From Sphingopyxis sp. (GTDB lineage Bacteria; Pseudomonadota; Alphaproteobacteria; Sphingomonadales; Sphingomonadaceae): a stretch of DNA of 64,000 bases. The stretch is taken from NCBI RefSeq assembly GCF_040216815.1, contig NZ_JAVJOJ010000001.1:129229-193228 (forward strand), read 5' to 3'. The translations under genes were made by a program, and so were the position numbers. Below are positions 57,779 through 60,090 of this stretch, piece by piece (within the stretch, counting starts at the first letter, position 1; the number at the start of each line of letters is the position of its first letter). The notes under the pieces are model-generated. The model made no database searches, was not told the origin of the DNA, and saw only the letters and a list, made by a program, of their open reading frames with translations.

Positions 57779-57943
57779 GGCGCCGGGGTTTAGCCGCTAA
57801 AATGGCCCGGCGAAAGCGCGAAAGCCCGTTTTTGCTGCACGCAGCCGGGAGCGCGGTCACGCGAAGCCGCCCATTCAACGCGCCGAACCCGCCCGTCGCG
57901 TCCGACCGGGCCTCAAAGCATGATCGCACACGGCGCGACCCGG

Positions 57944-59011
57944 TCAGCGCCCCGTCCGGGCCGCCACCGCCTCGCGCACATTGTCGCTGAACAGGCCGTC
58001 GATGCCGGTCGCCAGATAGGCGCCGATCTCCGCCGCCAGATCGCCATGTCCCGCGGGATTGACCCCGCCGCGATCGCCCAGCGGCAGGAAATAATTTTCG
58101 CGGCGGAACGTCCACGGATGAACCTTCAGCCCCGCTTCATGCGCATCGCGCACGAGGCTGGTCGGCGTGACGAGGCGGCCGAGGGTGCCGCGCGGGATCA
58201 CCATCGCCTTGTTGGGCCCTATGCCGTCGGCGTAAGCAGCGATCATCTTCAGCCCCGATGGCGACGCCATGGCGGCATAGCCGGTGCCGGGCCGGTCGGC
58301 CGGACCGCCCTCGACGTCCATCAACTGGATCAGCGGCAGGTCGCTCCTGGCGCGCAGGTCGATCAGATTGCCGACCTCGAAGCTCTGGATGAACACCGGC
58401 GCGCTGCGGCCGCGATAGCCGAAGCGGTCCAGCATCGCGAGCAAAGGCGATTCGTGCGGCAGGCCGATCGACGCGAAATAACTCGGATGCTTGGTTTCGG
58501 GATAGACGCCGACCGGCTTTGCCCGCCCCCGGTTCGCCTCGGCAAGCAGCGTCAAAATCTCCTCGAAGGTCGGAATCTCGAACCGGCCGTCATAATCGGT
58601 GCCGCGCAGCCGCGGCAGCCGTTCGCGCGCGCGCAGCGTTTTCAGTTCGGCGAGCGTGAAATCCTCGGTGAACCAGCCTTCGACCTTTTTTCCATCGATC
58701 GTCTTCACCGCCTTGCGATCCGCAAACTCGCGGTGTTCCGCGACGTCGGTGGTCTCCGAAATCTCATTCTCGTGCCGCGCGACAAGGACGCCGTCCTTGG
58801 TCAGCACCAGGTCGGGCTCGATAAAATCGGCGCCCTGCTCGATCGCGAGCCGGTACGCGGCGATAGTATGTTCGGGGCGCTCGCCCGACGCGCCGCGGTG
58901 CGCGATGACGATAGGCGGCCGCCCGTCAAGCGTTGGCTGCGCCGTCACCGGATCAGCCGAACAGCCCGCGGGCAGCATGAAGGCGCCCAGCGCCGCGAGC
59001 CAGCGCTTCAT
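57944..59011 (-). CDS. glpQ: Glycerophosphodiester phosphodiesterase, exported
   Basis: IAHRGASG..PEHT, IEPDL, ETK and QSF motifs; lipobox-like AGC. Confidence 0.9.
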   Translation of the reverse strand: MKRWLAALGAFMLPAGCSADPVTAQPTLDGRPPIVIAHRGASGERPEHTIAAYRLAIEQGADFIEPDLVLTKDGVLVARHENEISETTDVAEHREFADRKAVKTIDGKKVEGWFTEDFTLAELKTLRARERLPRLRGTDYDGRFEIPTFEEILTLLAEANRGRAKPVGVYPETKHPSYFASIGLPHESPLLAMLDRFGYRGRSAPVFIQSFEVGNLIDLRARSDLPLIQLMDVEGGPADRPGTGYAAMASPSGLKMIAAYADGIGPNKAMVIPRGTLGRLVTPTSLVRDAHEAGLKVHPWTFRRENYFLPLGDRGGVNPAGHGDLAAEIGAYLATGIDGLFSDNVREAVAARTGR

Positions 59012-59358
59012 CGCGCAAAGCGCGCGCGCCATTCGTCGGCGGAAAAGCCGACGCTGACCCTGTCGTCCTGCTCGACGACCGGGCGGCGGATCATGGCCGG
59101 CTGATCGAGCATCAGCGCCTTGGCCGAGGCGGCGTCGAGACCGGCCTTCGCGTCGTCGGGCAGCTTGCGAAAGGTGGTGCCCGCCTTGTTGAGCAATTTT
59201 TCCCAGCCGAGCACGTCGATCCAGCGCTGCAAAAGGCCGGGGTCGAGCCCGTCTTTCCGGAAATCATGGAAGCGATAGGCAATATCCTGGTCGTCGAGCC
59301 AGCGGCGCGCCTTTTTCACGGTATCGCAATTGGGGATGCCATAGAGAATCATCGTCAT
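59008..59358 (-). CDS. ArsC/YffB family reductase
   Basis: YGIPNCDTVKKA and IRRP motifs. Confidence 0.88.
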   Translation of the reverse strand: MTMILYGIPNCDTVKKARRWLDDQDIAYRFHDFRKDGLDPGLLQRWIDVLGWEKLLNKAGTTFRKLPDDAKAGLDAASAKALMLDQPAMIRRPVVEQDDRVSVGFSADEWRARFAR

Positions 59359-59412: not shown

Positions 59413-60090
59413 CTATGCCGTCGGCGTGCGGTCCGCGATTCGCGTGTTGGCGCTCGCCAACTTGCCGCGCAGCGCGCGCGCAAAGCCTTCGTGCAGTTCG
59501 GCCGCGATATCGGGATTGGCGGCCAGATAGGCGCGAAGCGCCACTGCGGGCACGAACCACAGCCGGGCGTTGCTGCCGAGCACGACCGTGCCGGTCGCGT
59601 TCGATCCGTCGAGCACTGTCGCTTCACCGATCAACTCGCCCTCGGCCGATCGTCCGACCTCAACCCCGTCGCGCAAAATCGTCGCGCGGCCGTCGGCCAG
59701 ATAGAAAAGGCTGGGCGCGGCCTGGTTCTCGCGGATCAGTACCTCGCCGCGCCTCGCCGAAATCCAGTGCCCCTGATCGATAAGACGGCGCGCGGCAACC
59801 GCGCTCAGCCGACGAAAATGGCGGCGGCGCAATTCCTCATCCTCGGGCGAGAAGCGCACCTTGGCGCCGCGCAGCCAGAGCCGCGCGAGAATGCCGATAT
59901 TGACCGCGAGGATCGCGAGAACGAGTAGGCTGTAGCCGGGGTCCGAGGCGCGAAAGAGGGTAAGCGGCAGCGCGACGAGCGCAGCCGCGGCAAGGCCGAT
60001 GCGTGCATAGTCGATGCGCACGACGAAACTTGTCGCCAGAAGGAGCAGCAATGCCCCGTAGAGGAACCACGCAGAGTCGAAACTCGCCAT
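59413..60090 (-). CDS. Membrane protein with a cyclic-nucleotide-binding (Popeye-like) domain
   Basis: About 3 N-terminal TM helices, then a CNBD (GEVLIRE, LFYLADG, IGE); no HTH. Confidence 0.75.
   Translation of the reverse strand: MASFDSAWFLYGALLLLLATSFVVRIDYARIGLAAAALVALPLTLFRASDPGYSLLVLAILAVNIGILARLWLRGAKVRFSPEDEELRRRHFRRLSAVAARRLIDQGHWISARRGEVLIRENQAAPSLFYLADGRATILRDGVEVGRSAEGELIGEATVLDGSNATGTVVLGSNARLWFVPAVALRAYLAANPDIAAELHEGFARALRGKLASANTRIADRTPTA

Follow-up and report, generated by a model that had tools for sequence, protein, structure and literature searches.

A probable membrane-bound cyclic-nucleotide receptor of Sphingopyxis from a bacterial protein superfamily homologous to animal POPDC proteins

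A stretch of 64,000 nucleotides from a Sphingopyxis sp. genome (contig NZ_JAVJOJ010000001.1, positions 129,229 to 193,228), here called the window, carries at window positions 59413-60090 on the minus strand a gene for a protein of 225 amino acids (aa), which is labeled P0001. P0001 is probably a small inner-membrane cyclic-nucleotide receptor. It belongs to a bacterial superfamily in which three transmembrane (TM) helices precede a cyclic-nucleotide-binding domain (CNBD) and which is homologous over its full length to the animal POPDC proteins; the probability of this reading is estimated to be about 0.6. POPDC proteins are disease-linked cAMP effectors, with links to limb-girdle muscular dystrophy as well as to cardiac arrhythmia. 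A sizeable bacterial family shares the whole POPDC plan, which is composed of a membrane domain, a linker, a CNBD and a C-terminal helix.

Translation of the window from 59413 to 60090 on the minus strand gives a single open frame of 225 aa followed by a TAG stop. An alternative, longer frame of 273 aa starts at a TTG codon. Since a length of 225 aa and the beginning MA(S/N)FDSAWF are found in most close homologues, the ATG at 60090 is likely to be the true start. The AlphaFold2 model of P0001, built with 112 homologues, has a mean pLDDT of 91 and a pTM of 0.78. Three long helices (residues 7-21, 26-46 and 51-76) come first, followed by two short ones (82-91 and 97-104), by a barrel of eight strands in which the cassette forms a short helix (156-161) and by two further helices (182-191 and 193-220); the chain stops 5 residues past alphaC with neither a helix-turn-helix (HTH) motif nor a tail. 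With Foldseek, the full model matches domains of CRP, PKG and CNG in the PDB (E about 1e-8). A Pfam scan assigns residues 111-191 to cNMP_binding (PF00027) with 44.6 bits (cut-off 27.5). No HTH, channel or pore, or catalytic family of Pfam and NCBIfam matches P0001 at E<=10, and the NCBIfam scan gives nothing specific. The charges are distributed over loop 1 (RIDYAR), the segment following TM3 (RLWLRGAKVRF) and an acidic N-terminus (MASFDS); this pattern obeys the positive-inside rule and fits a topology with the N-terminus outside and the C-terminus inside. By the model and the charge pattern, P0001 has the POPDC layout, namely three N-terminal TM helices in an N-out arrangement and a CNBD predicted on the cytoplasmic side. 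The original prediction for this gene, which was made from the DNA letters, had described about three TM helices leading through a linker into a CNBD with no output domain and no HTH, pore or catalytic domain. The structural model and the family scans agree with it on all of these points, and the two strings that it singled out, VNIGILARLWLRGAKVRFSPEDEELRRRHF (residues 63-92) and IGEATVLDGSNATGTV (residues 154-169), are both found in P0001. The features of the gene and its product are as follows.

59413..60090, minus strand: whole coding sequence of P0001, 225 aa plus TAG stop (translation; homologue lengths and starts)
60028..60072, minus strand: TM helix 1, residues 7-21 (AlphaFold2)
59953..60015, minus strand: TM helix 2, residues 26-46, with R30 (AlphaFold2; alignments)
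59863..59940, minus strand: TM helix 3, residues 51-76, with N64 (AlphaFold2; alignments)
59779..59862, minus strand: linker and N-terminal helices of the CNBD, residues 77-104, KVRFSPEDEELRRRHF...ARRLI (hhalign; linker-dependent profile links)
59548..59778, minus strand: beta-barrel of the CNBD, residues 105-181 (PF00027 over residues 111-191; AlphaFold2 strands; Foldseek)
59584..59631, minus strand: phosphate-binding cassette IGEATVLDGSNATGTV, residues 154-169 (phmmer against PKG domains; column counts)
59431..59547, minus strand: helices alphaB and alphaC, residues 182-220, with K210-L211 (AlphaFold2; alignments)

The homology to POPDC is carried by comparisons of profiles. The vertebrate POPDC1 set was retrieved with a query sequence whose best match, at 99% identity, bears the name popeye domain-containing protein 1; as a positive control, human-type POPDC1 scores 157 bits on the Pfam family POPDC1-3 (PF04831, cut-off 28.1 bits). 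The family profile A1, which includes P0001, matches POPDC1 by hhalign with a probability of 97.2% and E=3.9e-11, in a collinear alignment that lays P0001 residues 8-217 on POPDC1 residues 43-267, from TM1 to alphaC. The set of PF04831-positive bacterial proteins (A2) matches POPDC1 with a probability of 97.6% and E=4.7e-12. The linker motif RFS.EE..L...F of the family is aligned by hhalign with PVKIEKEL...YRRLF of POPDC1. Since the common CNBD could drive such full-length scores, profiles of the N-terminal part only were also compared, each with a reversed-sequence control. With the TM helices only, the Sphingopyxis clade matches an intermediate group, "GHLS", at E=9.7e-10 (reversed control 0.26), the GHLS group matches the PF04831-positive bacteria at E=1.3e-16 (reversed control 0.54), and the PF04831-positive bacteria match POPDC1 at E=2.3e-4 (reversed control 0.31). 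With the TM helices plus the linker, the Sphingopyxis clade matches the PF04831-positive bacteria at E=2.7e-10 (reversed control 0.11), and these match POPDC1 at E=2.7e-9 (reversed control 0.1). The lowest reversed-sequence control over all comparisons is E=0.004. A different, CBU_0592-like membrane signature gives no match to POPDC1 (E=0.3) and, being represented by a single sequence, is a rough internal negative control; the subgroup sizes in these comparisons are likewise rough, the sorting pattern for CBU_0592-like sequences having caught one sequence.

Individual residues follow the same alignment. Just two columns in the N-terminal alignment (A5) do not vary across three bacterial groups, those of R30, at loop 1/TM2, and N64 in TM3. 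These residues align with the invariant R70 and N104 of POPDC1, and both positions vary in the wider family. K210-L211 in alphaC is conserved in all four groups including POPDC1, where it corresponds to the invariant K260-L261.

The phosphate-binding cassette of P0001 is atypical. In phmmer alignments with PKG domains, IGEATVLDGSNATGTV aligns on FGEAALIHNTQRSATI; the canonical G155-E156 pair is kept, and Ala165 occupies the position of the Arg that clamps the phosphate. In the merged alignment of 127 members of the clade and the wider family, the canonical-Arg column holds Ala in 125 and Pro in the other two, and Arg in none. By these column counts, the absence of the Arg, which had been noted for this one protein, is a family trait and not a lesion of one gene. 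The same position is occupied by Ser or Ala in the PF04831-positive bacteria and by the Phe of FQVT in vertebrate POPDC1. Within the Sphingopyxis clade the Gly-Glu pair is strictly conserved, as is the terminal T-A/G-T-V of the cassette. A large part of the PF04831-positive bacterial branch has Asn, Asp or Ser in place of the Glu. The GE of P0001 aligns with the DS of DSPE and its ATGT with FQVT, the absent Arg being the sole cassette feature that is common with POPDC.

It is conceivable, although rather unlikely, that P0001 has the homology and architecture described above but that its barrel holds something other than a 3',5'-cyclic nucleotide, which would make P0001 a membrane-anchored small-molecule sensor. 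Similar shifts have occurred repeatedly in the CRP/FNR superfamily, and according to a POPDC review other ligands are bound by CNBD-fold proteins that have lost the Arg as well as the Glu (PMC5872366). The lack of the Arg in all 127 members and the replacement of the Glu in much of the PF04831-positive branch would agree with such a shift. However, the strict conservation of Gly-Glu and T-A/G-T-V in the Sphingopyxis clade argues for a cyclic nucleotide, the best matches of the CNBD profile are true cyclic-nucleotide binders, and POPDC proteins, which are also devoid of the cassette Arg, have nonetheless been reported to bind cAMP (PMC5872366). Furthermore, cyclic-nucleotide signaling is present in the genome of P0001, which has eight CNBD matches along with two class III cyclase domains, and the cyclases speak for cyclic nucleotides being made in this organism.

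If P0001 is a cyclic-nucleotide receptor, its ligand, coupling and output may be pictured by analogy with POPDC and other CNBD proteins. TM3 would run through the conserved charged linker straight into the cytoplasmic CNBD. The ligand would probably be cAMP or cGMP, supplied by one or other of the two class III cyclases; it would bind in the barrel and be held by Gly155-Glu156, by backbone amides and by Thr166/Thr168 without a cassette Arg; the missing charge may be supplied by the conserved Lys210 of alphaC or by Arg101 of alphaA. Closure of the alphaB/alphaC lid would move the linker and, in turn, the membrane helices. The output may be a change in self-association, in how a partner membrane protein is held or in an intrinsic activity of the membrane domain. 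POPDC acts on a partner membrane protein, TREK-1.

Several observations weigh against the placement of P0001 with POPDC and against its role as a cyclic-nucleotide receptor. P0001 gives no match to PF04831 at E<=10. The Sphingopyxis clade alone, which makes a profile of low diversity (A4), matches POPDC1 with a probability of only 2.2% (E=0.022, not significant), and with the TM helices plus the linker the clade reaches E=0.015 against POPDC1 (reversed control 0.36). Against a hidden Markov model (HMM) of POPDC1 alone, the Sphingopyxis proteins score E>2, and because of this the membership of P0001 in the superfamily rests on transitive links. The CNBD profile matches PKG, PKA and CRP at E 4e-36 to 1e-13 but the Popeye domain only at E=2.5e-7. 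The DSPE and FQVT motifs are absent from P0001, the cassette of which reads GE...ATGT. The eukaryotic side of all comparisons is vertebrate POPDC1 only. In addition, loss of the Arg in many CNBD-fold proteins accompanies a ligand that is not a cyclic nucleotide (PMC5872366). As to other searches for a direct link, PF04831 has no match in any frame of the genome of P0001, and no POPDC entry is found among the 50 matches listed by Foldseek for the full P0001 model against the PDB, which are only CNBDs; a literature search for a cryoEM structure of POPDC1 found none.

Taken by themselves, the failure of P0001 on PF04831 and the non-significant direct match of the clade to POPDC1 would suit a protein that is an ordinary CNBD on a membrane anchor and whose likeness to POPDC is convergent or comes from hydrophobic composition. 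The Foldseek matches, which are to generic CNBDs, and the membrane part, which reaches at best E=1, point in the same direction. However, such convergence is improbable. The links made with the TM helices only and with the TM helices plus the linker are significant step by step, and their reversed-sequence controls are not. The negative result with the CBU_0592-like signature, although it comes from one sequence, indicates that three hydrophobic helices alone are insufficient for a match. Bacteria and vertebrates conserve R, N and K-L at the same positions, and relatives of P0001 exceed the curated Pfam cut-off of PF04831.

By these sequence comparisons, P0001 is best placed, as a divergent member, in a bacterial superfamily that is homologous to POPDC, and outside the Pfam family POPDC1-3. 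The original prediction had called P0001 a bacterial POPDC-like protein, which the comparisons partly support. The part of this claim that stands is homology at the level of the family, across the TM domain, the linker and the CNBD; the likeness of the linker to that of POPDC, which had been noted by eye, becomes in the profile links a remote and transitive homology over the same three parts. The part that does not stand is the assignment of P0001 itself: when the Popeye and cNMP_binding models of Pfam are set side by side, P0001 scores only as a generic CNBD, and it carries neither DSPE nor FQVT.

In a FastTree phylogeny of 111 sequences, POPDC1 groups with the PF04831-positive bacteria (SH-like support 98). 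The Sphingopyxis clade lies in the other half of the tree, apart from POPDC1, together with nine relatives that are not PF04831-positive (support 98). This placement is provisional, POPDC1 being a long and compositionally odd branch. Provisionally, the PF04831-positive members would be the closest bacterial relatives of POPDC, and P0001 would belong to a sister branch.

P0001 and animal POPDC1-3 have in common an N-out arrangement of three TM helices, a linker, a cytoplasmic CNBD fold and alphaB/alphaC in the same order, and the conserved Arg, Asn and Lys-Leu. In both, the same cassette position is without its Arg, and no enzymatic or DNA-binding output is present. Unlike animal POPDC1-3, P0001 is bacterial, stays below the PF04831 threshold, keeps Gly-Glu and has ATGT in place of DSPE...FQVT; its N-terminus of 6 residues is without a glycosylated ectodomain, there is no disordered C-terminal tail, and its branch in the FastTree phylogeny is sister to the one that unites PF04831-positive bacteria and POPDC1. 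The PF04831-positive bacterial proteins, such as P0271, resemble P0001 in length, topology, the RFS.EE..L...F linker and the K-L motif, part of them have a GE...ATATV-type cassette like that of P0001, and the A1 profile finds them over their full length at E 1e-43 to 1e-49. They differ from P0001 in a score of 29-52 bits on PF04831, in the signatures GHLSF...RD.L.LR and PLW..IFW, and in their place beside POPDC1 in the tree. The canonical CNBD proteins (PKG, PKA-R, CRP/CAP and HCN/CNG/MloK1) have the same fold and most of the cassette residues and provide the best sequence and structure matches, whereas P0001 is devoid of the cassette Arg and of a kinase, HTH or pore and has a three-helix membrane domain. 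A cyclic-nucleotide-gated channel of the MloK1, SthK or HCN type, which has six TM helices and a pore, was rejected: P0001 has three TM helices and matches no ion-channel family.

It is highly improbable that P0001 is an anti-phage effector of the Pycsar type, in which a CNBD joined to membrane helices would damage the membrane in response to a cyclic pyrimidine. PADLOC models of PycTIR and other Pycsar effectors match P0001 weakly (E 2e-9 to 3e-5), and the PycTIR chain 8jsk is among the matches of the family profile (E=5e-15), but these matches span the generic CNBD only. No cyclase gene is adjacent, the neighbors are housekeeping genes in conserved synteny, and the gene is kept at 70-99% identity across the genus in the manner of a core gene. 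Furthermore, the membrane helices of P0001 are N-terminal and homologous to those of POPDC. The defense reading was rejected on genomic context and domain order. The loci of seven family members have no recurring cyclase, channel or phosphodiesterase neighbor. Because distant family members are flanked by unrelated housekeeping genes, P0001 is regarded as the product of a stand-alone gene without an operon partner.

Public records give homologues of 225 aa one of two names, "cyclic nucleotide-binding domain-containing protein" and "Crp/Fnr family transcriptional regulator", the second of which is wrong. A role of P0001 as a Crp/Fnr-family transcription regulator, to which these names of close homologues point, is refuted by the lack of any HTH match at E<=10, the end of the chain 5 residues after alphaC and the three TM helices. 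The Crp/Fnr naming of three-TM, HTH-less homologues is an annotation error that has been propagated among records.

The bacterial family is large. Among close relatives, P0001 has 294 homologues at E<=1e-3, and those in Sphingopyxis are 69-99% identical and typically 225 aa long. A phmmer search of a library of 1.84 billion proteins, consisting of representatives of clusters at 50% identity, gives 278 homologues at E<=1e-10, mostly of full length (215-245 aa) and aligned from TM1 to the C-helix. Judged from these 294 and 278 homologues, the P0001 gene is real and under constraint. A full-length family member is found in about 13 of 401 alphaproteobacterial genomes, and in 7 of the 16 sampled genomes of the taxonomic family of the window, including both of its genus. 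Other classes of the phylum have a few full-length relatives, and the superfamily is mainly alphaproteobacterial. One protein from outside the Alphaproteobacteria, of 308 aa (locus L036, G421:C2, open reading frame 492-1418 on the minus strand), has a POPDC-like membrane domain (20.6 bits on PF04831) and a degenerate CNBD (16.6 bits). It shows that the plan extends beyond one class.

The relation of the family to PF04831 is graded. PF04831 matches at E<=10 are found in 23 of 112 sampled family members, with a best E of 1.2e-12, and proteins above its cut-off occur in 8 of the 401 alphaproteobacterial genomes. P0144, which is 35% identical to P0001 over the full length, scores 28.6 bits against the cut-off of 28.1. 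The full-length PF04831-positive bacterial proteins that were inspected are about 215-250 aa long and have three TM helices and a CNBD joined by the RFS.EE..L...F linker, with a cassette that is mostly of the form GE...ATATV. In the bacterial matches, PF04831 positions 3-106 cover the membrane helices and the linker, not the nucleotide-binding domain alone. A profile search with the PF04831-positive bacterial set finds at least 120 metagenomic proteins, 118 of which have both PF04831 and PF00027 among the matches listed; several such proteins have been named "Popeye protein conserved region" by the automatic naming of JGI. As far as can be judged from these sequences, the family looks like a graded series that leads from the canonical CNBD to the Popeye domain, with loss of the cassette Arg common throughout.

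The membrane domain varies within the family. Another membrane signature, Y..SY..LQ.G...Y.Y..LN...VL.SL..FN.SSA.IQ.SWI.IS, is present in 43 of 104 proteins of the phmmer family (roughly 40% by motif count). Carriers of this CBU_0592-like signature include P0163, P0148 and P0181 (locus L025, 1433-2128), and P0163 has a precomputed Pfam tag of PF26604 (CBU_0592). Their CBU_0592-like membrane domain, which may stem from a domain swap or be a strongly diverged version of the same domain, is fused with the usual RFS.EE linker and CNBD of the family.

With the POPDC-like TM profile A5 (TM helices only), stand-alone three-TM proteins of the YgjV type, 88-93 aa long, are found at E 3e-8 to 4e-10. These come from small genomes of another class (G559, G761, G409, G583 and G731; loci L033, 467-733 on the plus strand, and L034, 465-746 on the minus strand). 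They pass the threshold of Imp-YgjV (PF10688) and have faint matches to POPDC1-3, MtN3_slv and NMN_transporter. Imp-YgjV proteins differ from P0001 in having no CNBD. PF10688 also matches 5 of 112 family members, and residues 1-95 of P0001 give no match to it (cut-off 23.5 bits). The POPDC membrane domain may be a YgjV-type unit. A separate AlphaFold2 model of the TM-plus-linker part of P0001 has a pLDDT of 83, and its Foldseek search against the PDB gives nothing better than E=1 and thus no structural support for the YgjV-type link. A SWEET-like fold of the membrane domain is unsupported, SemiSWEET and PnuC being absent from the Foldseek matches.

A doubtful but far-reaching extension of these observations is that the bacterial stock of three-TM CNBD proteins, with the Sphingopyxis clade among them, gave rise to animal POPDC, whose membrane part would be a YgjV-type three-helix domain that has its own activity and is gated by Arg-independent binding of a cyclic nucleotide. 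Such an activity may be, for example, a path for small solutes or ions that forms upon oligomerization. If this were so, the tail-less bacterial protein of 225 residues would be the first tractable system for POPDC biochemistry.

According to reviews, POPDC occurs only in animals and some protozoa, its closest relative outside the family is the CNBD of bacterial CAP/CRP, which is related to the Popeye domain alone, and the biochemical activity of POPDC is still poorly understood (PMC5872366, PMC4918794, PMC8706714). The reviews mention no full-length bacterial homologues, in agreement with the earlier remark that bacterial versions are essentially unstudied (PMC5872366, PMC4918794, PMC8706714). 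Some bacterial proteins already receive a Popeye tag from pipelines based on Pfam, so that a bacterial branch is implicitly held in the databases, and the Sphingopyxis clade is outside this tag. The family, which spans members with canonical-looking cassettes such as P0001 and Pfam-positive, POPDC-like members, sets the loss of the cassette Arg in an evolutionary context. Its small bacterial proteins are suited to structural and binding studies, and P0001 is a possible simple model for POPDC. The analysis also corrects the public annotations as Crp/Fnr transcription factors and marks one of about seven CNBD proteins of Sphingopyxis as a putative cyclic-nucleotide receptor at the level of the membrane.

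The P0001 gene is divergent from a class II DAHP synthase gene and lies upstream of an ArsC-family gene (55-bp gap), a GDPD gene and panB. The order DAHP synthase, CNBD, ArsC-family, GDPD and panB is kept within Sphingopyxis, as seen in the other Sphingopyxis that was compared. Co-transcription of the P0001 gene with the ArsC-family gene is possible from this arrangement. The ArsC-family gene (59008-59358, minus strand) and the GDPD gene (57944-59032, minus strand) overlap by 25 nucleotides when the latter is counted from its first ATG, and by 4 nucleotides in Sphingopyxis sp. SE2. The two genes are probably translationally coupled, and the true start of the GDPD gene probably lies slightly downstream of the listed one. 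Between the GDPD gene and panB the window has a gap of 165 bp (57779-57943), where another Sphingopyxis has a gene for an aldo-keto reductase of 309 aa.

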